IMG/VR virus record: IMGVR_UViG_2778261504_000002 | Location: 1-16,850 of that record | Length of the DNA stretch: 16,850 bases | Reading direction: 5' to 3' (one strand) | Source: a virus | Lineage: Duplodnaviria > Heunggongvirae > Uroviricota > Caudoviricetes | Part shown: in pieces, positions 1 through 15,478 of the stretch | Numbering within the stretch: position 1 is the first letter of the stretch | How the letters are laid out: each line of letters opens with the position of its first letter | Position numbers and translations under genes: made by a program | Notes under the pieces: generated by a model | The model's input: the letters and a program-made list of their open reading frames with translations, nothing else | What the model was told of the DNA's origin: nothing | Databases searched by the model: none

Positions 1-301
<301 letters not shown>

Positions 302-305
<4 letters not shown>

Positions 306-919
306 AAATCATCCACCTTAGGCGCAGCTGAGACAGCAACATTCCAGAACTCAGAAAACATATTGTATGCACCAGATAGATTGGAAGTAGCATACCCTCC
401 AAGCTCACTTCTAATCTGAACGGCTCTCATCATTTCCGGGGTTAACTCCTTCGGCACCATAACCCAACCATCCGGAGTTACCGGAGAGTTGCCACCGGGA
501 ATATTTTCCGGAATATTTTGTTGTGCGTTTTGTGGTTGTTCTGATTTACCCTGAAGCATGGCGGCGCGGCAGGCGTTCCAGCCAGCTGTTCGCCCAAGCG
601 CGTAAACTTCAGATGGATCAAGATAATCAATGTCATGCCCGTCCTCATCGTCGTTCTCAGGTAATGCAGCAGGTACTACCGGTACTGGCGGAGCGGCGTA
701 GACCTCAATAATTCCATTATCAATAGGCCATTCTCCATCCTTGAGGTAGTCACTTGTGCCGTCAACTTGCTGTTCTGCAATGTGGAATGCACCTATTGGT
801 TTTGCTTCCAGCGATGCCAGAGCAATCCGTGCCAGTTCCATTTGTTCGCCACTAGTAAGTCCGTTATCAAGCGGGGATTTAATGAACAATTCGATACGTT
901 CTTTAGTGATAGTGCTCAT
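302..919 (-). CDS. hypothetical phage protein
   Basis: Track ORF 302..1018 trimmed to the ATG at 919 (MSTITKERIELF...), which has an AAGGAG Shine-Dalgarno about 6 nt upstream and sits 2 nt from the stop of the upstream gene. No recognisable domain. Confidence 0.5.
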
Positions 920-920
920 A

Positions 921-1478
921 TCACTCTCCTTTGATGCGAATGCCAGCTGCGCTTGCTGATTCTTCATATGCGCGTTTAGCAGCGTTAAGGATTGCTGCCA
1001 GTGGCGTATAGCCGCCATCCATTCGGATTGTGTTGTGGATGCCAGCCATTGTGTCGCGCAATTTGCTGTGGCTAGCAGACAGTTCTGCTATGCACTTCTC
1101 TGCGGCATCGGCTCGATCTTTTTCACGCTGGAACATTTTGTGAGTGCGGTCTATAGCTTCGATTCGTGCCGCTGATGTCTTCTGCACGGCTTCAAGCTCA
1201 ACACGCAGCTTCCCAACCGTAAGAGCAATATCCTCGTTCTTCTGGTCGCGGCGTTTGATGTATTGCTGGTTTCTTTCCCGTTCATCCAGTAGTGCCAGCA
1301 CGGTTTCTGGCCCGGTCAGAAATTTGAAGGCGTTGAGCGCATCAATATCCACACCGTAATCCTTAAGTTCCTGTTCAGTTAACAAATCATCATCAACTGG
1401 CAACATTAACAGGCGTTCCATTGCCGGAATTGCACGCTCTGCCGCCTCACGCAGTGCCTGATAGTCAATCTTGCTCAT
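921..1478 (-). CDS. hypothetical protein, predicted coiled-coil
   Basis: 185-aa ORF in the leftward operon, translationally coupled to its neighbours (4-nt start/stop overlaps). Charged, heptad-like composition. Function unknown. Confidence 0.55.
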   Translation of the reverse strand: MSKIDYQALREAAERAIPAMERLLMLPVDDDLLTEQELKDYGVDIDALNAFKFLTGPETVLALLDERERNQQYIKRRDQKNEDIALTVGKLRVELEAVQKTSAARIEAIDRTHKMFQREKDRADAAEKCIAELSASHSKLRDTMAGIHNTIRMDGGYTPLAAILNAAKRAYEESASAAGIRIKGE

Positions 1479-2050
1479 TGGATGACTCCTTTACGAAGCT
1501 GTTCGGCGATATCTTCGAGAACGCCATCAGAGAATGAACGGTCAAAATCGCCTTCCGGCGCATTGGCCATAAACTCAGTAGAGGTAAGAATCATCCGGGC
1601 AATATCAGCGGCGTTCTTCGCAGTATCATCAATAAAACCAGCTTCCCAGGCAGCCAGCATTCTGTTCGCCACAAAGTAAGCGCCCTCCTTGCGTGCTTCA
1701 GTCTTCACTTCAGGCAGAAAAGCATCGGTGGCTGGGGTTTCAGTAATATCATCTTCCCATTCGCTAAACTCCTCACGACAAAAGTCATTAAATTCCTTCT
1801 CAGATTGCTTAAGCGAGGAATTTTCAGCAGCCATCTTCGCGCATTTAGCCTCAAGGTTATCAATCGTGATTCCAGCAGAACGACACTCCCGCAACGCCGT
1901 TTCTAGTTTTGATTCAAGTTCACCGAACTTACGGACAAGATATTCATCGTTTGTTTCGTCAACCTTTAAATCACTTGGGATGCATTTACCTTTCAGAAAA
2001 CCATCCATCTCAATTAGTGTCATTTGTTTCATTTCTTCCCACTCCGCCAC
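1475..2050 (-). CDS. hypothetical protein
   Basis: 191-aa ORF in the same polarity, overlapping both neighbours. Acidic with a coiled-coil-like central region. Function unknown. Confidence 0.55.
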
Positions 2051-2193
2051 ATCGCATTCAGATATTTGTTGTCATTAACAGAACCGAAACTCTTTCTCTT
2101 AAGCAATTCCTCTCTCGATGGCATTGGCTTTGCGCGTTGGCGAATAATCATTTCTGCCGGAAGAATGCCGGGATTGTATGCAAGTCCTCTCAT
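2029..2193 (-). CDS. small hypothetical protein (start uncertain)
   Basis: Track ORF 2029..2343 overlaps the upstream gene in another frame. An internal ATG at 2193 is preceded by GAGGAA; an alternative ATG lies at 2211. About 55 aa. Confidence 0.3.
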
Positions 2194-2203
2194 GGTAAAT
2201 TCC

Positions 2204-2497
2204 TCAGTCATTACTGATAGCGCCATAGCGTGAGCGGTAATTACGCAGGCGCGGGTCAATTTCAGGGAAGTGGGTATATGTGGCTTTGCGGAATGGTCGG
2301 ATTGATGTCTGGTAAATTCGCTCGCGTTCTTCTTTCTCTGCAAGCCATATACAATGGCGAAATTCCTTTTCCTCTTTCGTTTCCTGCGGTAGCGACATTA
2401 TCCGATCGTAGTTTTTTCTGAATTTATCCAGCACCTCCGATACGGAATTGCCGGAACAGCGGCGCGCGTCATCCGCACCATACAGAGGCGCTGGCAT
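2204..2497 (-). CDS. hypothetical protein
   Basis: 97-aa ORF starting 16 nt downstream of the exonuclease stop with a GGAG-type ribosome-binding site. No recognisable domain. Confidence 0.5.
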
Positions 2498-2513
2498 GGT
2501 TTTCTCCTGTTGA

Positions 2514-3062
2514 TTATTTAGCTAACTTTTTCCAGATCGCTGAAACGTATTTGGCTTGGTGAATGGCATCATCAAGCGCGTTGTGGCGAGTTCCTTTGAA
2601 TGGCATATCTCGCTTAGGGTCTAATCCTATTACCCTCCCAAGTTCGACGATTGTTCTTACGTCGCGGTCATTCCACCACTGCCACGGAACTGGCTGCCCT
2701 GTCAGCGAATAACTGTTTCGGAGAATAACGCAGTCAAATGATGCTCCATTCCCCCAAACCTGAACGAATTTGTGGTTAGCGTTCTTTATGATGAATTCAG
2801 ATAACCATGAAAGAGCCGTTGAAAGCTCCTGAGTGTTGCTGGTTAGCGATTTTCTGGCTTCTTCACTCTGTTCCAGCCACCATAAAATCGTTGAAGCGTC
2901 AGGACGCGCCCGATATCGCATTGATGACTCAAGCGAGATATTTACCGAGAACTCTTCTCCTGTTTCTCCGGTATTCGGGTCAAAGAATACCGCCCCAATA
3001 GAAATAACTGGCGCATATGGCCCGTTGCCCATTGTTTCAAGGTCAACCATTAAGTGATTCAT
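2514..3062 (-). CDS. DnaQ-like (DEDDh) 3'-5' exonuclease
   Basis: 182-aa ORF with N-terminal MVDLETMG (Exo I DxE motif) and C-terminal HNALDDA (Exo III H-x4-D motif). Sits directly downstream of ssb in the recombination module. Confidence 0.75.
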   Translation of the reverse strand: MNHLMVDLETMGNGPYAPVISIGAVFFDPNTGETGEEFSVNISLESSMRYRARPDASTILWWLEQSEEARKSLTSNTQELSTALSWLSEFIIKNANHKFVQVWGNGASFDCVILRNSYSLTGQPVPWQWWNDRDVRTIVELGRVIGLDPKRDMPFKGTRHNALDDAIHQAKYVSAIWKKLAK

Positions 3063-3070
3063 GTAAGTCC

Positions 3071-3577
3071 TTAAATTGCGTGAATAGCGTGACGAGGGAA
3101 GGGGAGAGTTACTGGTGCAAAGGGTATATCGTCGTCAAAATCCATCGGAGGTTCGTTGTGTTGTGCTGGTGATGATTGCTGCTGTGGCTTCTGTGATTGC
3201 CTGCTGGCTGCTTGTTGTTTGCTGTCGCCAATTCCGCCAAGCATTTGCATCACGCCATTAATTCCGACATGAACCTCGGTTGTGTAACGGTCTTGCCCTG
3301 ACTGGTCTTTCCACTTTCTGGTTCTCAGCATTCCCTCGAAATAAATCTGATCACCTTTTTTCACATACTGCCCCACGACCTCAGCCAGTTTCCCGGATAT
3401 AGCAACACGATGCCATTCAGTCAATTCCTTTTGCTCGCCAGTATTTTTATCTCGCCATTGTTCTGACGTGGCTATTGTCAGGTTAGCGAACGCTGTACCT
3501 GATGGTGAGTATCGAACTTCCGGGTCTTGTCCTACCCGACCAAGGATAATCACCTTATTTACGCCTCTGCTTGCCAT
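3071..3577 (-). CDS. ssb: single-stranded DNA-binding protein
   Basis: N-terminal OB-fold sequence closely resembles E. coli SSB ([21 protein letters not shown]...TEWHRV), followed by a Q/S/P-rich linker and the acidic [10 protein letters not shown] tail. The ORF unusually continues 15 codons past DDDIPF. Confidence 0.9.
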
Positions 3578-4285
3578 TTATGCCGCCTGTTTTAGTTCGT
3601 TAACTCTGATGTTCATTACCTGAACGCATTTAGCCTGCGCCTCCTCATTGCCAGCCATTAATTGCCAGTCACGCTGATAACGCTCGATGAGTTTTTTCTT
3701 GTCAGTTTCTGTTGACGCATAATCGCTGAAGTCTTTCAGGATTTGTTCGCAGTCAACCGATGGAGATTTCTGGTTGGTATTTTCTGGTGATGGTTTGTTA
3801 TCTGATGCTGGTATTGCCCATCCCGGCAGCGATGGAGGGAGCCAGTAAAATCCTGTTCCATCCTTGAGTTTTGCCCTGTGCCATCCCTGCTTTTTATCGA
3901 GAGATGTTTGTGCGAAACCTTCCTCAAGGTTATACAGATACCGACCGATTCCCCACTGAACGGCAGCGCGCTTCATTGCACCGGAACGACCACCTTTGAC
4001 GGCTTCTACCTGCGTGTTTTCAGCAGCATCCCATTTGGTTACCCATTCGGAATCAATCTTTATTGATATGCCGCATTCAACGCCGCCGTTGTTGGGAATA
4101 TCGCGGTATTCATTGCGCCATCCTGCTTTGCCGCAAACATCGTCCAGGCGTTTCATGATTGCCCGGTTCGTTACATAAGCCAGCACCATAGCCCACACTT
4201 TGCCATCGCGTGTTTTACCGCTTTGCTGTATTCGCCATTCGATATCTTCAGGGCTGAATGGCTCATCGAATTTATTCAAATCCAT
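3578..4285 (-). CDS. single-strand annealing recombinase, Rad52/Sak-like
   Basis: 235-aa ORF immediately upstream of ssb and abutting it. The motif AMKRAAVQWGIGRYLY resembles the conserved Rad52-fold region. Start has a GAGGTG ribosome-binding site. Confidence 0.65.
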   Translation of the reverse strand: MDLNKFDEPFSPEDIEWRIQQSGKTRDGKVWAMVLAYVTNRAIMKRLDDVCGKAGWRNEYRDIPNNGGVECGISIKIDSEWVTKWDAAENTQVEAVKGGRSGAMKRAAVQWGIGRYLYNLEEGFAQTSLDKKQGWHRAKLKDGTGFYWLPPSLPGWAIPASDNKPSPENTNQKSPSVDCEQILKDFSDYASTETDKKKLIERYQRDWQLMAGNEEAQAKCVQVMNIRVNELKQAA

Positions 4286-4293
4286 AATTCACC

Positions 4294-4464
4294 TCAGAAT
4301 GGACACGGCCCAAGGAAATAACGCTGATTTAATACTTCAACTCGGGACAAATTAAGGCATACCCGCATTCCTTCGCGGTCGCCATTATGGCGATACCAGA
4401 GAGCTTTCTGCGTGTACATGCGTCTCTGTAACTTGCTCTCCTTCACTGTGGTTGCAAGTGACAT
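4294..4464 (-). CDS. small hypothetical ORF (56 aa)
   Basis: Hand-translated ORF below the track threshold (MSLATTVKESKLQRRMYTQ...), with AAGGAG 7 nt upstream of the ATG. Overlaps another small ORF (4385..4543) in a different frame, so at most one is likely fully real. Confidence 0.25.
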   Translation of the reverse strand: MSLATTVKESKLQRRMYTQKALWYRHNGDREGMRVCLNLSRVEVLNQRYFLGPCPF

Positions 4465-4543
4465 GAATATCTCCTTCGTTACCGATTAATTCTTTCATCT
4501 GACGAATGAATTCTTCGTCTGACCAGTTATCTGTAAAACTCAT
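4385..4543 (-). CDS. small hypothetical acidic ORF (52 aa)
   Basis: Hand-translated (MSFTDNWSDEEFIRQMKELIGNEGDIHV...). ATG overlaps the stop of the Kil-like ORF; ribosome-binding site is weak. Competes with 4294..4464. Confidence 0.25.
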   Translation of the reverse strand: MSFTDNWSDEEFIRQMKELIGNEGDIHVTCNHSEGEQVTETHVHAESSLVSP

Positions 4544-4692
4544 TTCCTGCGATACCACGGATGGTTGATAGCTGATTTCATCGCTTTATTTGCTTCAAGC
4601 CACATTTTTGAATCACCAATAAATCTGGCTATTACTGCTTTGTTCTGTGCAGCACGAAGCATCTGGTGATTGATGGCTATTTCATTGCGCAT
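4540..4692 (-). CDS. kil: Kil-like small protein (host division inhibitor family)
   Basis: Hand-translated 50-aa ORF MRNEIAINHQMLRAAQNKAVIARFIGDSKMWLEANKAMKSAINHPWYRRK. The FIGDxKM..EA core resembles lambda Kil as I recall it. GGAGG sits 5 nt upstream of the ATG. Position between cIII-like and the recombination genes matches lambda gene order. Confidence 0.45.
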   Translation of the reverse strand: MRNEIAINHQMLRAAQNKAVIARFIGDSKMWLEANKAMKSAINHPWYRRK

Positions 4693-4811
4693 AACGCCTC
4701 CAGTTGTTTCTTTGCTGCTCTGATTAATTGTTTAACTCGGCGTGATAATTCAGATTCGTGCGGGTAGAAAGCGGACATGACGCCGCTACCCGCGAGCTGA
4801 AAGTGCATCAT
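4677..4811 (-). CDS. cIII: cIII-like small protein (FtsH inhibitor family)
   Basis: Hand-translated 44-aa ORF MMHFQLAGSGVMSAFYPHESELSRRVKQLIRAAKKQLEALCAMK. The pattern AG..V....P.ES.L.R..R.L resembles lambda CIII (IAGWPVAGCPSESLLERITRKL). AAGGAG 6 nt upstream. The 79-aa track ORF 4677..4916 contains it, but its N-terminal part looks non-coding. Confidence 0.5.
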   Translation of the reverse strand: MMHFQLAGSGVMSAFYPHESELSRRVKQLIRAAKKQLEALCAMK

Positions 4812-4994
4812 GGGTAACTCCTTATATTTGATTGCATAACGAAAACGCCTCGAGTGAAGCGTTATTGGTATGCATATAAAAAAGCCCTCACACTGGAGGG
4901 CAAAGAAGATTTCCAATAATCAGAACAAGTCGGCTCCTGTTTAGTTACGAGCGACATTGCTCACATAGCAGACTCGCAAATCTGCTATAGGTGC

Positions 4995-5153
4995 TTATTC
5001 GCATCGCATGACAACATCAAATTTTTCGAGATTACTTTGTCGCAACAATCCTTCTTCTACGCGGTCAGCTTTTCTATAATTATCAAATTCGAAATGTTTA
5101 ATTACTTCTTTCGTTTCTCGCTCTATAACTTCAACAATGTATTTCTTATTCAT
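4995..5153 (-). CDS. small hypothetical ORF (about 52 aa)
   Basis: Hand-translated ORF (MNKKYIVEVIERETKEVIKHFEF...) whose ATG overlaps the stop of the upstream 98-aa gene (ATGA arrangement). AT-rich, below the track threshold. Confidence 0.3.
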   Translation of the reverse strand: MNKKYIVEVIERETKEVIKHFEFDNYRKADRVEEGLLRQSNLEKFDVVMRCE

Positions 5154-5449
5154 CATTCTTCCCCAAGAGCTTTTCTGATTGCTGCAAGACCTTTATTAAC
5201 AGCTCCATACCATTCTGGATATGTTGTCTTTGTTCTATTTTTGGTTTGCTTAAGTAATAACTGAAGTGCTTCGAGAAGGTCAGGTGCTGCCGCTATTAGA
5301 TTGGCATCTTCAATGCATTGAACTTCCTCACAGATTGCAATATACGAACGCCAGCCTGCGCCATTTTCAAGTGAGTCTGCCTGGATGATTTTAATCTCAT
5401 CGCCATCCATCATTATTTCCCACTTACCTTCAGTACCTTTAAATTCCAT
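5153..5449 (-). CDS. hypothetical protein
   Basis: 98-aa ORF in pL-operon polarity, immediately downstream of a terminator-like hairpin. No recognisable domain. Confidence 0.5.
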   Translation of the reverse strand: MEFKGTEGKWEIMMDGDEIKIIQADSLENGAGWRSYIAICEEVQCIEDANLIAAAPDLLEALQLLLKQTKNRTKTTYPEWYGAVNKGLAAIRKALGEE

Positions 5450-5470
5450 GTTAGCCTCTGTTGTTTATGC

Positions 5471-5496
5471 CAAAAATAAAGGCCGACTATTCGGCC
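5471..5496 (-). terminator. intrinsic terminator-like hairpin within the pL operon
   Basis: GGCCGA-N4-TCGGCC stem at 5481..5496, followed on the minus strand by TTTATTTTTG. The hairpin overlaps the stop codon of the 107-aa gene. A candidate N-suppressible terminator. Confidence 0.5.
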
Positions 5497-5810
5497 TTAT
5501 CTACATTCCTGAACCAAACGCAGATCGGACCGTCTTCTGTATCGTGAATCGAACCGACAAACCATCCTTCTCCATCTGGCATGCTTGGCTCCCATCCACT
5601 GATGTTTTGATTCCCATCTTCAAAATACGCGTCAATTACCGTTTGATTGTTGTCGTTTTCCATTTCAACAATTGATGATTCAATGCCATGCTGCTTGCAG
5701 AAAGATCTGAACTCATCAGCTGAAATTACCTCTCTATCCCCAAACAGGTTGGCGTATTCTGGGTGCGTCCAGTAGCCATCCTCGCTTCGCTCTACTACTA
5801 ATGCTTCCAT
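5487..5810 (-). CDS. hypothetical, strongly acidic protein
   Basis: 107-aa ORF with a GAGGTG ribosome-binding site. About 24 Asp/Glu against about 6 basic residues. No recognisable domain. Confidence 0.55.
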   Translation of the reverse strand: MEALVVERSEDGYWTHPEYANLFGDREVISADEFRSFCKQHGIESSIVEMENDNNQTVIDAYFEDGNQNISGWEPSMPDGEGWFVGSIHDTEDGPICVWFRNVDKAE

Positions 5811-5990
5811 ATCTCACCTCAAATAAGTGGTTTGCTGCCTAATTTCATTTTCTGGCGACCAACACAAGTCACACCCATTTCACTGCGTGGCTTGCTGTAG
5901 TAAAGATTGTGCCTGTCTTTTAACCACATCAGGCTCGGTGGTTCTCGTGTACCCCTACAGCGAGAAAAATAGTAAAATCCTCTCACCCCC

Positions 5991-6353
5991 TTATTTTATC
6001 AGGGGGATATCTCCTTCAGTTCTGACCATTCGCCTTAATACTTTCCTTAAGTCGATGTAAAGTTGAAGGTCTCCATTTGCTGCGGCATCAGCCATTTTTT
6101 GCCTGACAAGCAGTAATGTTTCATACGGCTCAATAAGAATATCGTCATGAGTAATTAGGTGAAGCGTTGCCGCATCAACTATTCCTAGAGCTGCGCCAAG
6201 TATCAAAAATTCCCTGCTATTTTTGTCACATGAGGAGGTAAGCGTATTTAGCGCATACCTAATATTCTTTATAGCTGTTGTTAATGCTGCAATTTCTTCT
6301 ATGGCGTCTTCTTCAATGAGCTTTTTAAGCTCATATTTTTCTTCCTGACCCAT
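5991..6353 (-). CDS. hypothetical protein
   Basis: Track ORF 5991..6422 trimmed to the ATG at 6353 (MGQEEKYELKK...), which follows a GAGG ribosome-binding site and lies 2 nt downstream of the N stop. A hairpin CCCCCT-N9-AGGGGG overlaps its stop codon. Confidence 0.5.
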   Translation of the reverse strand: MGQEEKYELKKLIEEDAIEEIAALTTAIKNIRYALNTLTSSCDKNSREFLILGAALGIVDAATLHLITHDDILIEPYETLLLVRQKMADAAANGDLQLYIDLRKVLRRMVRTEGDIPLIK

Positions 6354-6355
6354 AA

Positions 6356-6739
6356 TTACCTCGCCGTCAGTTGTTTTGATTTCCGGTAGCCTGCCGCGTA
6401 AATGGCTACGTTTGGAAGACATACACCAGTTTCTGGTTGCTTATGTCCAAACTCATTCGCGTACACAATGGCCGCTCGCTCCAGATTGCGTCTGTATTCT
6501 TTCTGTTGCCAGATCACGTCCTGTGCCATGAACTTAATTGGCTTAGCGTCTTCTATGCGCTCAGGCGTTTCGTGAGTACCTTTAGCCTGAATCTGCGCTC
6601 TGCTTAGAGTAGGGCGGTGTAATACTTCTGAACTTATTGCTTCTTCGCGGGCCAGTACGCCGTTAGCTAATGCCTTTGCCTTTAAACGCTCACGACGACG
6701 AGAACGTGAATTGCCTTTGAACTGAGTTCTGCGTGTCAT
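6356..6739 (-). CDS. N: N-type transcription antitermination protein (P22 gp24 family)
   Basis: Track ORF 6356..6841 trimmed to the ATG at 6739, preceded by AGGAGG. The N-terminus has an arginine-rich motif (TRRTQFKGNSRSRRRERLKAKA). The C-terminus LPNVAIYAAGYRKSKQLTAR closely matches the end of P22 gp24 (LLPGVALYAAGHRKSKQITAR) as I recall it. Confidence 0.75.
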   Translation of the reverse strand: MTRRTQFKGNSRSRRRERLKAKALANGVLAREEAISSEVLHRPTLSRAQIQAKGTHETPERIEDAKPIKFMAQDVIWQQKEYRRNLERAAIVYANEFGHKQPETGVCLPNVAIYAAGYRKSKQLTAR

Positions 6740-6868
6740 ATAGACCTCCTGATGAACTTTGGTGGTGAATACAGCCGGGCGACTAACTCCGGTCGCGTAA
6801 TCATTGCAAAGCGCCTCCGCCGAGAAGGTTAGCTTCTGCATTCACCCCAAAGTTCACTTTGGTTATTG

Positions 6869-6883
6869 CGCTTTGTCAGCGCC
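6869..6883 (-). promoter_or_regulatory. nutL boxB hairpin (P22-type)
   Basis: Minus strand reads GCGCTGACAAAGCGC, a 5-bp stem with a GACAA loop, between pL and N. A convincing boxA was not found. Confidence 0.6.
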
Positions 6884-6950
6884 GTAGATTCATATTCGAA
6901 TCGTTGTATATTCACCGCCCTGGTGAGTAGTGCGTCCTGCTGATGGGTGA

Positions 6951-6998
6951 ACTTTATCGGAATGATAAATTAATGGCAATAGCAAAATGATAAATTCT
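6951..6998 (-). promoter_or_regulatory. pL promoter with OL operator repeats
   Basis: Minus strand reads TTGCCA-17 nt-TAAAGT (-35 at 6974..6979, -10 at 6951..6956). The 10-mer ATGATAAATT occurs at 6962..6971 and 6987..6996 and again in the cI-cro intergenic region. Confidence 0.55.
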
Positions 6999-7170
6999 CT
7001 TGGTTTTCAAATATCGTATTGATTCTTATGGTGTTTTATTTTGTTGTAGGAATTCGACAGGATAAATAAAGAGATTTGAGGGAGATCTGGATTGCGTTGT
7101 TTAGCAAGTTGTATCTATTTATTTTTCAACAAATACAATTGGTTATGTGTTTTTAGGTGTGGGGATCGTG

Positions 7171-7200
7171 AGGCAAAGAAAACCCGGCGCTGAGGCCGGG
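7171..7200 (-). terminator. intrinsic terminator downstream of the TAC module
   Basis: CCCGGC-N6-GCCGGG hairpin at 7183..7200, followed on the minus strand by TTTTCTTTG. Lies 10 nt after the stop of the chaperone gene. Confidence 0.55.
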
Positions 7201-7209
7201 TGGGGAATT

Positions 7210-7614
7210 TCACTTATTACTGTTCGTTTCCATGGGATTGGCCAAGAAATCAAAATAAGGCAGAGTGAACCTACCAAGGTTTGACATGAGGATAATTTGC
7301 TCGGCATATGTTTTTATATAGGGATATGCCATATTGGGAGCAATGGACCTTACCTCATATGATTTTGCCATTTCATGAGAAAAATCATCTTCTGACCGGA
7401 AGTCAAAGTCGTATGTGATGTCCATCTCAAGCCTGCCTTCAATAGTTACGGAGGCAAAATATCTCACTCTAAATAGCTTTGAATCCTTCACATTAGTGTA
7501 AAGTTCATTATTTAGATTAACGGTTGTTTTTATGGCTTTTTTTGCTGTTGAATCGCCTTCTAGCCGTGTCATAACCAAGCGTTCAACTTTTTTGCTAATG
7601 AGTTCAATTTTCAT
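7210..7614 (-). CDS. SecB-like chaperone of a toxin-antitoxin-chaperone (TAC) system
   Basis: 134-aa ORF whose start overlaps the antitoxin stop (ATGA). C-terminal region IAPNMAYPYIKTYAEQIILMSNLGRFTLPYFDF resembles SecB ([25 protein letters not shown]) and the M. tuberculosis TAC chaperone Rv1957 (YPYIREYVYDLTGRLALPPL). AT-rich compared with flanking phage DNA. Similarity judged from memory. Confidence 0.6.
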   Translation of the reverse strand: MKIELISKKVERLVMTRLEGDSTAKKAIKTTVNLNNELYTNVKDSKLFRVRYFASVTIEGRLEMDITYDFDFRSEDDFSHEMAKSYEVRSIAPNMAYPYIKTYAEQIILMSNLGRFTLPYFDFLANPMETNSNK

Positions 7615-8267
7615 GGTAATAATAAGTAATTTCCGTCAGAAGTCATTTCGTCATTCAGGTTGCTAGCCGCTGTGAAACTTGATGACAAGTTACTTATCAA
7701 AGAAAAAACATTCCGTTTTTCTTTGCATTTGCCATTACCCCTTACTGCGCTGAACAACATTTTTGAAAAGTAAGATTCTGTAGCCTTTTCAGCGAAATAA
7801 GCAGAAGGTGATGTGACGGCTGACTCACACCGAGCAATGACGCTAGTCATGGCTGTTTCTTCTTCCTCTGCGTCAACTAGGCTCCATTCAATTGCGCTCA
7901 TATCTTGAATTAAGATATCTGCAGGAATTCCAAGTCCGTCATGTAGTCTACGGATCATTGAAAGACTTAATGGACGCTTACGATTTAAGACCTCAGATAC
8001 TTTAGATGCTGAGCCAATGTATTGTTTCATATCGGCATAAGAGAGGCCTTGTTGATCCATACGGAACTTGATTGCTTCTATGGGATCTGGCTTGTCCATA
8101 GGGAACTCGCGTGACTCATAGTGCTCGATAAGCAAGCCTAGTAGTTCAAACTCATCAAAATCTTCAGTTCCAGGTTGTAAATCACTAGACGCAAGTTCAA
8201 TGAGCCTTTCCATAGCTGCAGCATGCTCTTCACTATTTTTAATGATGCGCCAGCTAGTTCGATTCAT
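7611..8267 (-). CDS. higA: HigA-like HTH antitoxin with a roughly 95-aa C-terminal extension
   Basis: Residues about 60-125 (IKFRMDQQGLSYADMKQYIGSASKVSEVLNRKRPLSLSMIRRLHDGLGIPADIL) resemble E. coli HigA. The ORF continues about 95 aa beyond the point where canonical HigA ends. Start overlaps the toxin stop. Confidence 0.7.
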   Translation of the reverse strand: MNRTSWRIIKNSEEHAAAMERLIELASSDLQPGTEDFDEFELLGLLIEHYESREFPMDKPDPIEAIKFRMDQQGLSYADMKQYIGSASKVSEVLNRKRPLSLSMIRRLHDGLGIPADILIQDMSAIEWSLVDAEEEETAMTSVIARCESAVTSPSAYFAEKATESYFSKMLFSAVRGNGKCKEKRNVFSLISNLSSSFTAASNLNDEMTSDGNYLLLP

Positions 8268-8551
8268 TTAAGCCTCCACTTGTCGTACTCTGCATGAGTT
8301 CCAACTCTTTCAACTATGACCATTCCTGCCTGGTAAACAACTTGGACAACGAGCCGATAGTTATTGCCTTTTATATTAAAAATTACCCTGTTGTTAGGAA
8401 GGAAGTCGGCAGAATTAAATCTATTCCGTATGTCTTGAGTCGTTTTCCAGTTTTCTCTTATCACTTCATCATACCAAGAGTCTAAAGCCCCCTTGGCCTG
8501 ATTGTGCTTCCGGCTAAAACTGTGAAGCTTCTCTACGTTTAAGACCTTCAT
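8264..8551 (-). CDS. higB: HigB-like toxin (RelE/ParE-fold mRNA interferase)
   Basis: 95-aa ORF. C-terminal RVIFNIKGNNYRLVVQVVYQAGMVIVERVGTHAEYDKW aligns with E. coli HigB (HYVFNVGGNELRVVAMVFFESQKCYIREVMTHKEYD) as I recall it. Toxin-first order and tight coupling to the antitoxin. Confidence 0.75.
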   Translation of the reverse strand: MKVLNVEKLHSFSRKHNQAKGALDSWYDEVIRENWKTTQDIRNRFNSADFLPNNRVIFNIKGNNYRLVVQVVYQAGMVIVERVGTHAEYDKWRLK

Positions 8552-8563
8552 AATCCGATTTTG

Positions 8564-8605
8564 TTCCCTCTTTGGGAATTATAGATTCATTTCCCATAAA
8601 GGGAA
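8564..8605 (-). promoter_or_regulatory. TAC promoter with paired inverted-repeat operators
   Basis: Perfect TATAAT on the minus strand (plus 8578..8583), flanked by two copies of TTCCC-N5-GGGAA (8564..8578 and 8591..8605), within 60 nt upstream of the higB ATG. The proximal repeat also covers the AGAGGGAA ribosome-binding site. Confidence 0.45.
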
Positions 8606-8687
8606 TCTGTATTTTTATCCAGAAATGCTATGTACATCACCCAAACGTCTCTTCAGGCCACTGGTTACCAGCTATGTGACGATGAAG

Positions 8688-9392
8688 TCACGAACTTTTC
8701 AGCCACTCCCTTGCCTCGATGTCATCCAGATGGCGAGATTGCTTCAGAATACCAGCCACATACTCCACCTTTGCTACTTGATGATAAGGCAACGTTATTG
8801 GCCTGTGGTCCTGGTTGATGCTTGTAAATTGGTATTCTCCGTCTCTGTCATAGCCAAGAACTTTGATCATGTTGTGTCCTTCAACAGTTCTGACAAACAC
8901 CTCATCACCCGGGAATACTTTGGTGTTAGGCTCAATGAGTACATATTCTCCTGATTTTATTCTGGGCCACATGCTGTCTCCTTTCACACGAAGACCAAAG
9001 GCATCTGGATCATCGCTATAAATTTTGAGCCACCCATCGCGCTCTTCGGTCATCTCGATGGCACCATCAACACCAAGAATTGCCTCACCAACCACGCGCA
9101 CTAACCCTTTTCTTACCTGACCGACAAAAGTTAAAGAATCTGAGCATGATGCAATTGGTGTTACATCATGTACCAAATCAAGCCACCCATTAGGTAACCC
9201 AAGCGCGGCTTCAAATTTTCTTGCTAGTTTATCCCCTATGTTTCGAGTGCTTTTTTCACCGGAGACTTGCGTGAGTTGAGAAGGGCTAACCCCAAGCTTA
9301 TCGGCAAAGCTTGCATTAGTGTTACCCGCGATTTTTTTATGCTCATCTAGCAAAAACGCCAGATTCGATTTGCGAATATCTTTGTTTTCCAT
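8688..9392 (-). CDS. cI: CI-like prophage repressor (HTH plus S24 LexA-like peptidase domain)
   Basis: 234-aa ORF transcribed away from cro. N-terminal HTH (NASFADKLGVSPSQLTQV) and a C-terminal region with the GDSMWP Ser-protease motif and a downstream Lys, as in autocleaving repressors. Sequence is unlike lambda, 434 or P22 repressors as far as I recall. Confidence 0.85.
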   Translation of the reverse strand: MENKDIRKSNLAFLLDEHKKIAGNTNASFADKLGVSPSQLTQVSGEKSTRNIGDKLARKFEAALGLPNGWLDLVHDVTPIASCSDSLTFVGQVRKGLVRVVGEAILGVDGAIEMTEERDGWLKIYSDDPDAFGLRVKGDSMWPRIKSGEYVLIEPNTKVFPGDEVFVRTVEGHNMIKVLGYDRDGEYQFTSINQDHRPITLPYHQVAKVEYVAGILKQSRHLDDIEAREWLKSS

Positions 9393-9419
9393 CTCACAAT
9401 TTTCCCTCTATTTAGCAAA

Positions 9420-9500
9420 TGGATAAATACGCAATATGATAAATTTACATTGCGGATGATTTATCAAAATGGTAAAGTTGTTCTGTGTGATAAACGGAGG
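9420..9500. promoter_or_regulatory. OR operator region with pR (and presumably pRM)
   Basis: Plus strand reads TTGCGG-17 nt-TAAAGT (-35 at 9450..9455, -10 at 9473..9478) upstream of cro. Operator-like repeats ATGATAAATT (9436..9445), ATGATTTATCA (9456..9466) and TGATAAAC (9488..9495). Architecture mirrors pL. Confidence 0.5.
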
Positions 9501-9505
9501 CACTA

Positions 9506-9739
9506 ATGAGTAATGAACTACTACGCTGGCGAAAAGAGGCTTCTAGTGAGGAATGGAAGCGACTCGCCGCATTAGCGAAAACTTCAGTTGGCTATCTTGA
9601 CCAGATTGCATATGGATTTCGAAGAGCTTCCCCTGATAAAGCGAATGCAATCGAAGAAGCTACTCGTAATTTCACGGGTTATAAACCTGTGAAAAAGGAA
9701 AACCTAGTGTTCGTATCGCGTAGAGCATCGGCTGCATAA
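9506..9739 (+). CDS. cro: Cro-like HTH regulator
   Basis: 77-aa ORF transcribed away from cI, with a GGAGG ribosome-binding site. First gene of the rightward operon. Family assignment is by position and size rather than strong sequence recall. Confidence 0.6.
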   Translation: MSNELLRWRKEASSEEWKRLAALAKTSVGYLDQIAYGFRRASPDKANAIEEATRNFTGYKPVKKENLVFVSRRASAA

Positions 9740-9777
9740 GTAACACCGCTATTTTCACAATGGACATTCGTCCTACG

Positions 9778-9792
9778 TCGCTGACAAAGCGA
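9778..9792 (+). promoter_or_regulatory. nutR boxB-like hairpin
   Basis: TCGCTGACAAAGCGA: 5-bp stem with the same GACAA loop as the nutL boxB. Located between cro and cII. Confidence 0.5.
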
Positions 9793-9877
9793 GTCCCAAT
9801 ATATCTGACCAACTAAGGCCACATGCGTTTCCACGCATACCTTTCAACTAACTATTCACTATTGGAAATCTTAAGAA

Positions 9878-10177
9878 ATGGAACAAACAAGTTACAGCAA
9901 ACTATCACAGCGAGAAATTGATCGCGCTGAAACTGATTTACTCATCAACCTGTCAACGCTTACCCAGCGCGGTCTGGCAAAGATGATTGGCTGTCATGAA
10001 TCGAAGATAAGCAGAACGGACTGGAGATTTATTGCTTCGGTCTTGTGTGCTTTCGGAATGGCATCAGACATCAGTCCGATTAGCAGAGCTTTTAAGTATG
10101 CGCTTGATGGACTCACCAATAAAAAACGCCCGGTGTGCAAGACCGAGCGTTCTGAACAAATCCAGATGGAATTCTGA
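9878..10177 (+). CDS. cII: CII transcriptional activator
   Basis: C-terminus LTNKKRPVCKTERSEQIQMEF matches lambda CII (ILTNKKRPAATERSEQIQMEF). The HTH region differs from lambda. Confidence 0.9.
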   Translation: MEQTSYSKLSQREIDRAETDLLINLSTLTQRGLAKMIGCHESKISRTDWRFIASVLCAFGMASDISPISRAFKYALDGLTNKKRPVCKTERSEQIQMEF

Positions 10178-10199
10178 GGGAATTACTGGATCAATCCAC
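10119..10199 (-). ncRNA. oop: oop-like antisense RNA
   Basis: The region over the cII 3' end and the cII-O junction matches lambda oop as I recall it. On the minus strand it ends in a hairpin (CGCTCGG...CCGGGCG) plus TTTTTTAT. Confidence 0.45.
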
Positions 10200-10209
10200 A
10201 GGAGTCATT

Positions 10210-11148
10210 ATGACAAATACAGCAAAAATACTCAACTTCGGCAGAGGTAACTTTGCCGAACAGGAGCGTAATGTGGCAGATCTCGATGATGGTTACGCCA
10301 GACTATCAAATATGCTGCTTGAGGCCTATTCAGGCGCAGATCTGACCAAGCGACAGTTTAAAGTGCTGCTTGCCATTCTGCGTAAAACCTATGGGTGGAA
10401 TAAACCAATGGACAGAATCACCGATTCTCAACTTAGCGAGATTACAAAGTTACCTGTCAAACGGTGCAATGAAGCCAAGTTAGAACTCGTCAGAATGAAT
10501 ATTATCAAGCAGCAAGGCGGCATGTTTGGACCAAATAAAAACATCTCAGAATGGTGCATCCCTCAAAACGAGGGAGGTTCCCCTAAAATGAGGGACATCC
10601 CTCAAAACGAGGGAAAATCCCCTAAAACGAGGGATAAAACATCCCTCAAATTAGGGGATTGCTATCCCTCAAAACAGGGGGACACAAAAGACACTATTAC
10701 AAAAGAAAAAAGAAAAGATTATTCGTCCGAGAATTCTGGCGAATCCTCTGACCAGCCAGAAAACGATCTTTCTGTGGTTAAACCGGATGCTGCAATTCAG
10801 AGCGGCAGCAAGTGGGGAACAGCAGAAGACCTGACCGCCGCAGAGTGGATGTTTGACATGGTGAAGACCATCGCACCATCAGCCAGAAAACCGAATTTTG
10901 CAGGGTGGGCTAACGATATCCGCCTGATGCGTGAACGTGACGGACGTAACCACCGCGATATGTGTGTGCTTTTCCGCTGGGCCTGCCAGGACAACTTCTG
11001 GTCCGGTAACGTGCTGAGTCCGGCCAAACTCCGCGACAAGTGGACCCAGCTCGAAATCAACCGTAACAAGCAACAGGCAGCCGTGACAGCCAGCAAACCA
11101 AAACTCGACCTGACAAACACAGACTGGATTTACGGGGTGGATCTATGA
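10210..11148 (+). CDS. O: replication initiator O
   Basis: Near-identical to lambda O along its length (MTNTAKILNFGRGNFA...TNTDWIYGVDL), with an extra 13 aa (GGSPKMRDIPQNE) in the iteron-encoded segment. Confidence 0.95.
   Translation: MTNTAKILNFGRGNFAEQERNVADLDDGYARLSNMLLEAYSGADLTKRQFKVLLAILRKTYGWNKPMDRITDSQLSEITKLPVKRCNEAKLELVRMNIIKQQGGMFGPNKNISEWCIPQNEGGSPKMRDIPQNEGKSPKTRDKTSLKLGDCYPSKQGDTKDTITKEKRKDYSSENSGESSDQPENDLSVVKPDAAIQSGSKWGTAEDLTAAEWMFDMVKTIAPSARKPNFAGWANDIRLMRERDGRNHRDMCVLFRWACQDNFWSGNVLSPAKLRDKWTQLEINRNKQQAAVTASKPKLDLTNTDWIYGVDL
10559..10682 (+). repeat. ori-lambda iterons (six copies) with adjacent AT-rich region
   Basis: Six tandem roughly 18-19 bp repeats of the TCCCTCAAAACGAGGGA type inside O, followed by the AT-rich stretch at 10683..10720. 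Canonical lambda has four as I recall. Confidence 0.85.
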
Positions 11149-11846
11149 AAAACATCGCCGCACAGATGGTTAACTTTGACCGTGAGCAGATGCGTCGGAT
11201 CGCCAACAACATGCCGGAACAGTACGACGAAAAGCCTCAGGTACAGCAGGTAGCGCAGATCATCAACGGTGTGTTCAGCCAGTTACTGGCAACTTTCCCG
11301 GCGAGCCTGGCTAACCGTGACCAGAACGAACTGAACGAAATCCGCCGCCAGTGGGTTCTGGCTTTCCGGGAAAACGGGATCACCACAATGGAACAGGTTA
11401 ACGCAGGAATGCGCGTAGCCCGTCGGCAGAATCGACCATTTCTGCCATCACCCGGGCAGTTTGTTGCATGGTGCCGGGAAGAAGCATCCGTTATCGCCGG
11501 ACTGCCAAACGTCAGCGAGCTGGTTGATATGGTTTACGAGTATTGCCGGAAGCGAGGCCTGTATCCGGATGCGGAGTCTTATCCGTGGAAATCAAACGCG
11601 CACTACTGGCTGGTTACCAACCTGTATCAGAACATGCGGGCCAATGCGCTTACTGATGCGGAATTACGCCGTAAGGCCGCAGATGAGCTTGTCCATATGA
11701 CTGCGAGAATTAACCGTGGTGAGGCGATCCCTGAACCAGTAAAACAACTTCCTGTCATGGGCGGTAGACCTCTAAATCGTGCACAGGCTCTGGCGAAGAT
11801 CGCAGAACTCAAAGCTAAGTTCGGACTGAAAGGAGCAAGTGTATGA
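11145..11846 (+). CDS. P: replication protein P (DnaB helicase loader)
   Basis: Essentially identical to lambda P (MKNIAAQMVNFDREQMRRIANNMPEQYDEK...KFGLKGASV). Start overlaps the O stop. Confidence 0.95.
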   Translation: MKNIAAQMVNFDREQMRRIANNMPEQYDEKPQVQQVAQIINGVFSQLLATFPASLANRDQNELNEIRRQWVLAFRENGITTMEQVNAGMRVARRQNRPFLPSPGQFVAWCREEASVIAGLPNVSELVDMVYEYCRKRGLYPDAESYPWKSNAHYWLVTNLYQNMRANALTDAELRRKAADELVHMTARINRGEAIPEPVKQLPVMGGRPLNRAQALAKIAELKAKFGLKGASV

Positions 11847-12133
11847 CGGGCAAAGAGGCAATTATTCATTACCTGGGGACGCATAATAGCTTCTGTGCGC
11901 CGGACGTTGCCGCGCTAACAGGCGCAACAGTAACCAGCATAAATCAGGCCGCAGCTAAAATGGCACGGGCAGGTCTTCTGGTTATCGAAGGTAAGGTCTG
12001 GCGAACGGTGTATTACCGGTTTGCTACCAGGGAAGAACGGGAAGGAAAGGTGAGCACGAACCTGATTTTTAAGGAGTGTCGCCAGAGTGCCGCGATGAAA
12101 CGGGTATTGGCGGTATATGGAGTTAAAAGATGA
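11843..12133 (+). CDS. ren: Ren
   Basis: 96-aa ORF matching lambda Ren (MTGKEAIIHYLGTHNSFCAPD...). Start overlaps the P stop. Confidence 0.9.
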   Translation: MTGKEAIIHYLGTHNSFCAPDVAALTGATVTSINQAAAKMARAGLLVIEGKVWRTVYYRFATREEREGKVSTNLIFKECRQSAAMKRVLAVYGVKR

Positions 12134-12158
12134 CCATCTACATCACTGAGCTAATGAC

Positions 12159-12190
12159 AGGCCTGCTGGTAATCGCAGGCCTTTTTATTT
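12159..12190 (+). terminator. tR2-like intrinsic terminator
   Basis: Perfect 8-bp stem AGGCCTGC / GCAGGCCT with an 8-nt loop, followed by TTTTATTT. Lies directly downstream of ren, as in lambda. Confidence 0.75.
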
Positions 12191-12203
12191 GGGGGAGAGG
12201 GAA

Positions 12204-12506
12204 GTGAACGATAGCTACCGACAGTTTGAAAACTGGTGGTCAAAAGACAAAAGCCAGTTCACGGGAGACGATGAATTAAAAGAGTTTGCCTGGGTGATAT
12301 GGCAGGCATCGCGCTCTGCTATTGAACTGGATATCGACTGGCCCGAATCGAATGACGACTTTTGGAAAGATGGTGAAGAAGGTGCTTATGCGATGGGTTA
12401 TGAGGATGGGCGTGACAAAACGGTAATTGCAGTAATGAAAGCTATCAGAGCCGCTGGAATTAAAGAGAAGAATTTCGATGAAGCAAACAATATTCCTCCG
12501 AACTAA
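12204..12506 (+). CDS. hypothetical acidic protein
   Basis: Track ORF 12189..12506. Probable GTG start at 12204 preceded by GGGGGAGAGGGAA. Lies between tR2 and ninB, where lambda has no gene. Confidence 0.45.
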   Translation: MNDSYRQFENWWSKDKSQFTGDDELKEFAWVIWQASRSAIELDIDWPESNDDFWKDGEEGAYAMGYEDGRDKTVIAVMKAIRAAGIKEKNFDEANNIPPN

Positions 12507-12888
12507 GCAACAACAGCAAGCCGCAATCAACGCCATCCTCGCAACACCACTCGATAAAGACAAGCCAGTCACCATCCGCATTACTGACTACAAGCGCAAC
12601 CTTGACCAGAACGCAAAATTTCACGCGATGCTGGCGGATATCGCACGTCAGGTTCAATGGTGCGATAAGTGGTTAAAACCAGAACAATGGAAGGTTTTGT
12701 TGATTAGCGGTCATGCAGTGGCAACAAAGCAGGAAGCTGATGTTTTGCCCGGCCTTGAAGGCGAATACGTCAACATTCGCGAAAGTAGCGCGCAGATGAG
12801 TGTGAAGCGTATGGCAAGTCTGATTGAGTACACGACAGCATGGGCTATTGGTCAGGGCGTCAGATTTACCGACAGGAGGTACGAATGA
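12478..12888 (+). CDS. ninB: NinB (recombination protein)
   Basis: 136-aa ORF with the NinB pattern (AAINAIL...[33 protein letters not shown]), comparable to lambda NinB. Confidence 0.85.
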
Positions 12889-13061
12889 GACGACAGCGAC
12901 GAAGTATCACCGACATAATCTGTGAAAACTGCAAATACCTTCCAACGAAACGCTCCAGAAATAAACGCAAGCCAATCCCAAAAGAATCTGACGTAAAAAC
13001 CTTCAACTACACGGCTCACCTGTGGGATATCCGGTGGCTAAGACATCGTGCGAGGAAATGA
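12885..13061 (+). CDS. ninE: NinE
   Basis: Track ORF 12840..13061 trimmed to the ATG at 12885 ([27 protein letters not shown]...), near-identical to lambda NinE. ATGA overlap with ninB. Confidence 0.85.
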
Positions 13062-13063
13062 CA

Positions 13064-13465
13064 ATGCTTTTAATTCAACCTGGATTTGGACTTAGCATCA
13101 AAAAAGGCCACATGTTTGGCGAGAAAGAGTCACAACGAAAAATGGTGTCTATCCGGTTGCCATTTATCAGTATTTATTGGCTAAACAGGGAGGCAACAAA
13201 TTATTGGTATACATGCGCCAGAGCAGCATTTAACGACCCTGACTGGTTTGTGAAAAACCACCACGCAGTTCGTCAGGCAAAGAGAAAGGCCAATATGACA
13301 TACATGAAGGCGTATCAAAAAGCATGGAAAGAACACCGCGATCGATACCAACAAGACATGGAAAAGCTTGAATCAGAAAACATGGAATTAAGACGAAAGC
13401 TCGGTGAAGCAAAACGAGACATTGATGCTTACAAGCGACTTTTTAATGGTGAAAGCCATGCTTAG
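13064..13465 (+). CDS. hypothetical protein (start uncertain)
   Basis: Track ORF 13022..13465. ATG at 13064 has GAGGAA 7 nt upstream. The C-terminal part is coiled-coil-like. Lies between ninE and ninF, which abut each other in lambda. Confidence 0.4.
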   Translation: MLLIQPGFGLSIKKGHMFGEKESQRKMVSIRLPFISIYWLNREATNYWYTCARAAFNDPDWFVKNHHAVRQAKRKANMTYMKAYQKAWKEHRDRYQQDMEKLESENMELRRKLGEAKRDIDAYKRLFNGESHA

Positions 13466-13634
13466 CCCATCCCAATCCCTTCAATACCAGAAAGAAAGCG
13501 TCGAGCGAGCTTTAACGTGCGCTAACTGCGGTCAGAAGCTGCATGTGCTGGAAGTTCACGTGTGTGAGCACTGCTGCGCAGAACTGATGAGCGATCCGAA
13601 TAGCTCAATGTACGAGGAAGAAGACGATGAGTGA
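13458..13634 (+). CDS. ninF: NinF
   Basis: Track ORF 13404..13634 trimmed to MLSPSQSLQYQKESVERALTCANCGQKLHVLEVHVCEHCCAELMSDPNSSM..., which matches lambda NinF. Confidence 0.85.
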   Translation: MLSPSQSLQYQKESVERALTCANCGQKLHVLEVHVCEHCCAELMSDPNSSMYEEEDDE

Positions 13635-15433: not shown

Positions 15434-15439
15434 AACGTG

Positions 15440-15468: not shown

Positions 15469-15478
15469 ATTCGCATAA

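Follow-up and report, generated by a model that had tools for sequence, protein, structure and literature searches.

A 15-residue extension beyond the acidic tip of a lambdoid prophage SSB as a candidate composite motif

The free C-terminal phenylalanine of SSB (single-stranded DNA-binding protein) is regarded as a universal handle that recruits more than a dozen genome-maintenance proteins, and it serves both as a drug target and as a rule for matching recombineering annealases to hosts. In phage T7, the single-stranded DNA (ssDNA)-binding protein gp2.5 carries an acidic C-terminal tail with an aromatic residue that mediates partner binding. Here, we describe the ssb gene of a lambdoid prophage contained in IMG/VR record IMGVR_UViG_2778261504_000002 (positions 1 to 16,850; this entire 16,850-nt stretch is referred to as the window), in which the SSB frame continues for 15 codons beyond the canonical tip DDDIPF. 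T7 gp2.5 differs from this protein in that its phenylalanine is terminal and its fold and partners are unrelated. SSB of E. coli shares an OB domain with approximately 70% identity, a disordered linker, and an identical 11-residue tip sequence, but its Phe177 is terminal and is bound by partners via both the ring and the carboxylate (PMC6393309), whereas the phage protein has 15 further residues and no carboxylate at this position.

The nearest characterized analogue in context is the SSB of phage HK620, which works with Sak4 and is likewise encoded in a lambdoid/P22-like early-left recombination module (Hutinet et al. 2018, PMC5928155). Stimulation of the annealase that goes with it depends on the C-terminal residues of this SSB (PMC5928155), but the protein ends with a free NDYPPF without extension, and the partner is phage encoded and family specific (PMC5928155). 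The nearest analogue in sequence is the gp27/gp26 pair of Sf6, which has the same locus, flanks, and 45-nt tail sequence as the window; in Sf6, however, the SSB terminates with DDSDIPF, and the tail encodes the C terminus of an endonuclease, whereas the window allele is uninterrupted. The GenBank note for Sf6 already records, uninterpreted, that gp26 shares 14 contiguous residues with "E. coli SSB." No paper describing the motif was found in a full-text literature search for the motif strings; the epsilon34 genome paper labels the gene just "a bacterial type SSB" with no comment on the extension, and ETfinder 2026 treats extensions of RecT, not of SSB. The extended tip, although common in databases, where it is silently annotated as "SSB," is apparently undescribed and functionally unexplored. 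We lean, by a modest preference, toward reading tip and extension together as a native functional composite motif that would mask the Phe carboxylate and add host-specific docking.

Conservation of the peptide beyond the tip

Translation of window positions 3071 to 3142 confirmed what a preliminary description of this sequence had noticed, namely, that the SSB frame runs 15 codons past DDDIPF, with GCA following the Phe codon, and that its TAA lies 8 nt ahead of the exonuclease ATG. On the minus strand, the DDDIPF codons occupy positions 3136..3119, GCA positions 3118..3116, and the exonuclease start ATG positions 3062..3060. A run of 15 open codons is unremarkable by chance alone, with a probability of (61/64)^15, or about 0.49, so its significance comes from comparative data and not from the window alone.

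Over a 651-nt region, the window shares 99.8% identity with phages mEp235 and mEpX2; mEp235 has been sequenced twice with an identical ssb junction, and its gp31 is 99.8% identical to the window ssb, with the same annotated ends. The extended open reading frame (ORF) is also annotated in epsilon34 (89% nucleotide identity), HK75, and ECP1 (body only 74% identical), and the extended junction is known in at least nine named phages. When a 75-nt probe spanning tip and extension was counted at a coverage of at least 80%, the identical junction was present in 297 of the 5,426 complete E. coli genomes. The 45-nt tail itself was found in 401 of these genomes; the alleles, either extended (297) or carrying one of two types of an endonuclease cassette (99 for type 1 and 10 for type 2), add up to the approximately 405 genomes with the tail. 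Among the 120 best SSB protein homologues (66 to 92% identity), 111 possess an extension of the same length and of co-diverging sequence, the genera represented including Klebsiella, Citrobacter, Salmonella, Enterobacter, Kluyvera, Pluralibacter, and Phytobacter. In this alignment, P155 and L158 are invariant, as are the tip residues F147, P152, and F153, and conservation reaches at least 90% at most of the remaining extension positions, in contrast to a variable linker.

Selection on the extension was assessed by pooled pairwise Nei-Gojobori counts on 78 unique DNA tails, which were partly retrieved by pattern. The ratio of nonsynonymous to synonymous substitutions (dN/dS) was 0.17 for all 15 codons, 0.24 for the codons free of the search pattern, and 0.27 for codons 8 to 15, with synonymous sites near saturation (proportion of synonymous differences [pS], approximately 0.65); in the two alternative frames of these nucleotides, the values were 0.87 and 1.71. 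Scans at the extension for promoter-like sites, terminator-like sites, and Rfam families were all negative. The low in-frame dN/dS together with the lack of a DNA or RNA signal points to constraint on the peptide, and the extension is almost certainly a native, selected peptide motif.

The wider distribution was explored with a degenerate DNA pattern for DDD[IV]PF[AS]P..L.[FY]. One genome per species was scanned, and 28 loci were recovered. They belong to Proteus, Providencia, Pantoea, Sodalis, Trabulsiella, Buttiauxella, Kluyvera, Atlantibacter, and Enterobacter, as well as to Vibrio (one of them on a plasmid), Pseudoalteromonas, Glaciecola, Oceanisphaera, Oceanimonas, and Zobellella. Viral contigs, scanned with a related pattern, contributed 114 further loci. 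The extension comprises 15 residues in 104 loci, 14 in 35, and 16 in 3. Without tip and extension, the protein bodies fall into three families unrelated by BLAST, i.e., PF00436 SSBs, including a divergent subtype starting with MAINTITISG; a 243- to 277-residue ssDNA-binding protein of the phrog_743/DUF669 type without a Pfam match; and a 315- to 406-residue protein of unknown family (MSVVNEYKDPMSGKVNHF...) encoded on viral contigs of approximately 147 kb (L224 and L261). Within the 120 best homologues of the phrog_743 family, 96 end with FDDDIPF and 13 carry tip plus extension; the presence of both forms in one family indicates that the add-on is optional and modular.

A search for the extension only (P[VI]GLP[FY]PRH) yielded 102 matches, 100 of which stand directly after IPF[AS], while in the other two too little upstream sequence is available for reading. 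Among these matches, the acidic residues are less strictly kept, as in DWDDPIPF, DFEDDIPF, DFSDDIPF, and the PIGLPYPRHAIYVI group. As the extension follows IPF wherever this can be read, it belongs to a composite motif, acidic-IPF-AP.GL.[FY]P, and is no independent module. Read from these alignments, the composite motif is an acidic stretch followed by IPF, AP, [IVL], [GT], L, [PQ], [FY], P, about six mostly hydrophobic residues, and the stop. It is widespread among ssDNA-binding proteins encoded by phages and other mobile elements of Gammaproteobacteria. The window protein fits the extended-tip group, in which IPF is followed by [AS]P[IVL][GT]L[PQM][FY][PG], six to eight residues, and a stop, with an extension of 15 residues in the window. 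The variable end reads [RS]H.I[HY].[ILV] (15 residues) in Enterobacterales, whatever the body, and LQ[YF]P.LL..[MC] (14 residues) in Vibrio, Alteromonadales, and Aeromonadales, an example of the marine-type tail being APIGLQYPALLLAM; it thus tracks the host clade independently of the protein body. A phmmer search with the last 30 residues against 1.84 billion representatives gave only 13 matches, mostly fragments, the query being too short to map the family.

Several unusual loci were encountered. An enterobacterial-type extended SSB locus occurs in L155 ("Chryseobacterium sp. 18061," Bacteroidota) and a marine gammaproteobacterial-type locus in L151 (a Parasphingorhabdus metagenome-assembled genome, Alphaproteobacteria); contamination or mis-binning is the likely cause. 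The 120-residue protein P0199 joins an unrelated N terminus (MTDITELAQRMKTAAEKLDADQW...) to the last 37 SSB residues (end of the linker, tip, and extension) and represents either a deletion product or a tail module moved onto another body. In viral contig L064, the residues ahead of the tail, ...PSPPARQPVPCSGIPF, correspond to the SSB linker translated in a different frame, probably owing to an assembly error or because the gene is a frameshifted pseudogene.

The ssb gene and its locus

The window is the early region of a lambdoid, H-19B/Stx-phage-like prophage, and ssb belongs to a minus-strand run of four adjacent genes encoding a Rad52/Rad22-type annealase, SSB, an Rv2179c-like 3'-5' exonuclease, and Abc2. 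The features of the region are as follows.

3071..3577, minus strand: ssb, 168 codons plus stop, encoding OB domain, short disordered linker, acidic tip, and 15-residue extension (ORF list, PF00436, phrog_44)
3266..3562, minus strand: OB-fold ssDNA-binding/tetramerization domain, residues 6 to 104 (Pfam, AlphaFold2, similarity to solved SSBs)
3152..3235, minus strand: Gln/Pro-rich intrinsically disordered linker, approximately residues 115 to 142 (AlphaFold2 confidence of about 33, weakly conserved alignment columns)
3119..3151, minus strand: canonical acidic tip (SSB-Ct), residues 143 to 153, internal here (translation, aligned to the ends of solved SSBs)
3118..3119, minus strand: vacant insertion site of the ssb-linked cassette for a putative HNH-type endonuclease, flanked by TTT (Phe codon) and GCA (pairwise alignment with L007; same site in Sf6)
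3074..3118, minus strand: 15-codon extension, residues 154 to 168 (translation, homologue conservation, dN/dS, AlphaFold2 disorder)
3071..3073, minus strand: TAA stop of the extended ORF, a mosaic module boundary (similarity to HK75 and ECP1 terminates here)
3063..3070, minus strand: 8-nt spacer TAAGGACTTACATG from the ssb stop to the exonuclease ATG (sequence)
2514..3062, minus strand: Rv2179c-like 3'-5' exonuclease, downstream neighbor (PF16473, 245 bits)
3578..4285, minus strand: Rad52/Rad22-type single-strand annealing protein, upstream neighbor (PF04098, 91.9 bits)
2204..2497, minus strand: Abc2 anti-RecBCD protein, next gene of the recombination module (PF11043, 209.6 bits)

The protein matches PF00436 over residues 6 to 104 (124.5 bits, E = 2e-36) and is assigned to phrog_44, and its OB domain is approximately 70% identical to solved enterobacterial SSBs (E = 1e-59). 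An AlphaFold2 prediction of the monomer, based on a 109-sequence alignment, displayed a β-barrel pattern for the OB fold with predicted local distance difference test (pLDDT) values of 70 to 89, whereas linker, tip, and extension all remained at about 33. In this model, the extension is disordered and gives no signal of intramolecular docking, behaving as expected of a short linear motif. The features of the family, an OB-fold domain and a disordered linker followed by the acidic SSB-Ct (D-F-D-D-D-I-P-F), are all present, except that SSB-Ct is not the extreme C terminus: 15 more codons precede the stop, and the Phe has no free α-carboxylate. By domain and tip, the protein is a PF00436 SSB without the usual terminal Phe of the family. 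The preliminary description had held that bacterial and most phage SSBs end exactly at DDDIPF. For solved and host SSBs this is correct, as all SSBs in the Protein Data Bank align to residues 1 to 153 and terminate at the position of F153, so that no solved SSB in this comparison covers residues 154 to 168; for the phage proteins of this clade, "most" is too strong.

The stop of the annealase gene abuts the ssb ATG, and the Shine-Dalgarno sequence of the exonuclease gene (AAGGA) overlaps the ssb stop. In HK75, ECP1, and Sf6, abc2 comes immediately after the ssb TAA, via TCAGGAGAAAA-ATG, while in the window, mEp235, and epsilon34, the exonuclease gene is placed between ssb and abc2; the similarity of HK75 to the window terminates at the last base of the ssb stop. 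The exonuclease gene is itself a mosaic insertion (window positions 3071 to 3073 and 2498 to 2513). Another arrangement is found in the Enterobacter loci L274 to L276, where an SSB with an approximately 90% identical body ends with MDFCDDIPF, carrying a Cys within the acidic tip, and is followed by an unrelated 3' flank with a GC-rich hairpin, a Sak4-like (AAA_24) gene being located upstream. This arrangement shows that ssb genes exchange their 3'-end modules at the sequence coding for the tip.

Endonuclease-interrupted alleles

Free-standing homing endonuclease genes are known to split or abut conserved phage genes, as do the seg and mob genes of T4-type phages and mobE, which splits nrdA in Aeromonas phage Aeh1. 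In about one quarter of the ssb alleles, a cassette for a putative HNH-type endonuclease (phrog_2340) is present in frame exactly after the SSB Phe codon. At least three types of the cassette occur, and it always adjoins an ssb gene. The endonuclease ORFs of the reference loci are as follows.

L005, 2007-2486: endonuclease ORF (Sf6 gp26)
L006, approximately 1570-2045: endonuclease ORF
L007, 1578-2045: endonuclease ORF

In Sf6, the SSB stops at NFDDSDIPF and is followed by the gp26 endonuclease, whose last 14 residues and their coding DNA are identical to the extension. Across viral contigs and reference phages, 97 of 128 copies of the tail end an SSB and 29 end an endonuclease. The insertion is exact: in a comparison of the window ssb with L007, a type 2 allele of the same SSB lineage, nt 1 to 459 align with L007 nt 1 to 459 (96.7% identity) and nt 460 to 507 correspond to L007 nt 898 to 945 (47/48 nt identical), the two blocks being separated by a 438-nt in-frame insertion. 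The site encodes ...GACGACGATATACCCTTTGCACCAGTA... in the empty allele and ...GACGATTCGGATATTCCGTTCTAG... in the occupied allele, and the layout of the insertion in L007 is TTT|TAA-RBS-ATG...GAG|GAA CCA (RBS, ribosome-binding site). With the cassette in place, the SSB ends at a canonical stop, and the 14 tail codons become the C terminus of the endonuclease; the eight tip codons are recoded in occupied alleles, giving DDSDIPF, DDQDIPF, or DDEIPF instead of DDDIPF. The window, with GCA after TTT and no insertion, does not belong to this interrupted type represented by Sf6 gp27/gp26 but is the empty allele.

Four lines of evidence indicate that the tail is native to the ssb locus and borrowed by the endonuclease. 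First, close endonuclease homologues without the tail are also located directly after ssb genes of various body types, whose SSBs end with DDSDIPF or DDQDIPF, and homologues at 35 to 85% identity end with WHKHNKPIY(P)(D/E) plus assorted short tails, never with PVTLPF. Second, the phrog_2340 profile covers residues 1 to 143 only. Third, the AlphaFold2 model of the endonuclease has pLDDT values of approximately 98 for residues 1 to 143 and below 50 for the borrowed tail. Fourth, endonuclease tails copy the local variant of the SSB tail, e.g., HAIYAI in P0022, and likewise in P0027. This evidence bears directly on the converse proposal, which is treated below.

The cassette is probably an ssb-specific homing endonuclease, as suggested by its presence or absence at one site in at least three SSB lineages, the recoded tip codons, and the constant adjacency to ssb. 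It resembles the T4-type seg/mob and Aeh1 mobE systems in its presence/absence pattern at a fixed coding site and in the recoding of its target codons when the site is occupied, but differs in that it lies in frame and takes over the last 14 codons of ssb; its cleavage and homing activities are putative. Chimeric ORFs were also observed (P0011, P0014, P0024, P0053, P0060, and P0063), which combine either an SSB N terminus with an endonuclease C terminus or an endonuclease N terminus with the Rv2179c-like exonuclease. Their appearance is that of cassettes in decay or after partial deletion, which a cycle of gain and loss of homing endonucleases would be expected to leave behind. In approximately 99 complete E. 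coli genomes, the annotation pipeline PGAP leaves the type 1 endonuclease ORF unannotated.

Proposed function and alternative explanations

The preliminary description had raised the possibility that the altered C terminus changes the recruitment of partners. This remains plausible and gains from the comparative results, i.e., purifying selection, fixed length, and host-clade-specific variants. As a specific mechanism, we tentatively propose masking combined with redocking. Making the Phe internal would deprive canonical partners (ExoI, χ, RecQ, PriA, and others) of the free α-carboxylate, so that the phage SSB could coat phage ssDNA without serving as the usual recruitment hub, and the added stretch rich in Pro and aromatic residues would give a partner, most probably one encoded by the host, a new surface to dock on. 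The extension would in this way reprogram the partner specificity of the SSB tip. Separately, the endonuclease cassette, specialized in ssb 3' ends, has invaded about one quarter of the alleles between Phe codon and extension. That the partner is probably host encoded follows from the variability of the neighboring phage genes, while the tail tracks host taxonomy. In a census of neighboring genes for a universal phage partner, no gene family besides SSB occurred in more than 27% of 142 loci, and the annealase beside the extended SSB is of the Rad52, Erf, RecT, or Sak4 type, depending on the locus. Masking alone would require no particular residue, yet a specific motif is conserved, which makes a pure mask unlikely.

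A somewhat more speculative extension of this mechanism is that the host-clade-specific motif turns the hub tip of SSB selective, blocking carboxylate-dependent nucleases and helicases (or evading a sensor of foreign SSB tips) while recruiting one host factor, with the homing endonuclease toggling between capped and canonical states. An internal Phe in a large selected class of SSBs would mean either that some partners read the tip without the carboxylate or that phages uncouple ssDNA coating from the recruitment of host partners. The answer would inform recombineering design, in particular, which phage SSB to coexpress, as well as the understanding of phage-host conflict over ssDNA intermediates. 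It would also matter for annotation, where the extended proteins are labeled plain "SSB" and the interrupting endonuclease ORF is missing from approximately 100 E. coli RefSeq genomes.

A number of points weigh against the composite motif with masking and docking functions. The AlphaFold2 monomer carries no docking information, and the dN/dS values are pooled pairwise counts on partly pattern-retrieved sequences, with constrained codons excluded. When GFP is fused to the C terminus of SSB, ExoI is no longer bound, and a wild-type copy must be present alongside such fusions (PMC7293020); this favors masking, but the case leans on a bulky fusion partner and on the logic of crystal structures rather than on a 15-residue peptide. 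The extension is dispensable for viability, as Sf6, IME10, N7, and approximately 109 E. coli prophages have the interrupted allele and hence a canonical SSB end, and some close relatives end canonically without any endonuclease. Masking alone predicts decay of DFDDDIPF, yet many lineages keep it, though the acidic part is relaxed in the PIGLPYPRHAIYVI group. The phages with interrupted alleles, the canonical relatives, and the mixed phrog_743 family argue against an essential role; the occurrence of both forms in an unrelated family suggests a conditional benefit, e.g., in an arms race, rather than a universal one.

Among the alternatives, two stand ahead of the others, although both are improbable and neither is preferable to the other. 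According to the first, the hydrophobic end (HAI, YAL, or LAM) is a C-terminal degron that sends the phage SSB to a host AAA+ protease, thereby limiting or timing its level. ClpX-type C-terminal degrons consist of an LAA tripeptide or are MuA-like (RRKKAI), and the endings of the extension, in which basic residues are followed by A[ILV], loosely resemble such C-motifs; the C termini are consistently nonpolar, the tail is disordered, and endings specific to host clades would fit a host protease or adaptor. However, none of the endings matches LAA-type termini, conservation is strongest in the proximal part (AP.GL.[FY]P) rather than in the last three residues, and the motif is invariably joined to the IPF tip, a requirement not expected of a generic degron. 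Two specific candidates, an ssrA-like degron and a β-clamp-binding motif, were rejected by inspection. The consensus of the latter is QL[SD]LF or QLxLxL, with Gln at position 1 and Leu or Phe at positions 4 and 5; the enteric versions of the extension have no Gln, and the marine LQYPALL misfits the spacing.

According to the second, equally improbable explanation, the extension serves specifically for docking a partner that the phage itself encodes, e.g., the annealase or exonuclease next to ssb, comparable to the last six residues of HK620 SSB, which recruit Sak4. The tails of phage SSBs do stimulate cognate annealases (PMC5928155), Redβ binds SSB-Ct (PMC6393309), and ssb is placed between the annealase and exonuclease genes. 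This contrasts with the findings that the extension accompanies annealases of all four types mentioned above, whether or not the exonuclease is present, and that the tail variant follows the host clade and not the neighbor.

Less probable again is a pro-form, in which a protease cuts after Phe153 and unmasks the canonical tip at a chosen time. Such processing would account for the perfect DFDDDIPF retained upstream of the extension, and the canonical end is evidently functional in phages carrying the endonuclease gene. However, most loci have no protease gene nearby, the relaxed acidic tip of one large extended group speaks against the need for a canonical tip after cleavage, and no bacterial system is known to generate SSB tips by cleavage.

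We consider it very unlikely that the conserved entity is a DNA or RNA element, such as a module boundary, a homing site, or a regulator of the downstream gene, with the peptide being incidental. The near invariance of the 45 nt in the E. coli/Salmonella group, even between SSB bodies with 74% identity, the mosaic boundary at the TAA, and the insertion of the endonuclease at the 5' edge of the 45 nt would be in line with this idea; on the other hand, the amino acids are kept despite a pS of approximately 0.65, dN/dS is near 0.2 in frame versus 0.87 and 1.71 out of frame, the scans gave no promoter, terminator, or Rfam match, and the downstream genes differ. Slightly less likely still is that the extension is a scar, the tail being natively the C terminus of the endonuclease and ssb having been fused in frame to its last 14 codons by deletion of the cassette. 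The identical 14 residues and DNA at the end of Sf6 gp26 and the exact in-frame 438-nt block that distinguishes occupied from empty alleles agree with this proposal, and extended alleles with tips of the occupied type do exist, implying that cassette loss regenerates the extended form. However, endonuclease homologues outside this type of locus have no tail and end about 16 residues earlier, endonuclease tails mirror the local SSB variant, the tail is disordered in the endonuclease model, and the extension is also present in other genera, such as Vibrio, Pseudoalteromonas, and Proteus, and at the end of unrelated bodies where the endonuclease was not seen.

Two of the three explanations offered in the preliminary description, a sequencing (or assembly) error and a stop-loss variant private to one prophage, can practically be dismissed: although 15 open codons are not unlikely by chance and a single base change could in principle open a frame, a change of TAA or TGA to GCA needs more than one, the identical junction recurs in separately sequenced phages and in the 297 complete E. 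coli genomes, each assembled independently, and homologues commonly carry the extension (111 of the 120 best), an outcome that the preliminary description itself had named as refuting its view; the motif spans many gammaproteobacterial genera, with diverged homologues retaining length and motif.

Apart from ssb, two minus-strand ORFs located between the recombination module and the immunity region, at positions 5991-6422 (143 residues) and 6356-6841 (161 residues), overlap by 67 nt in different frames.

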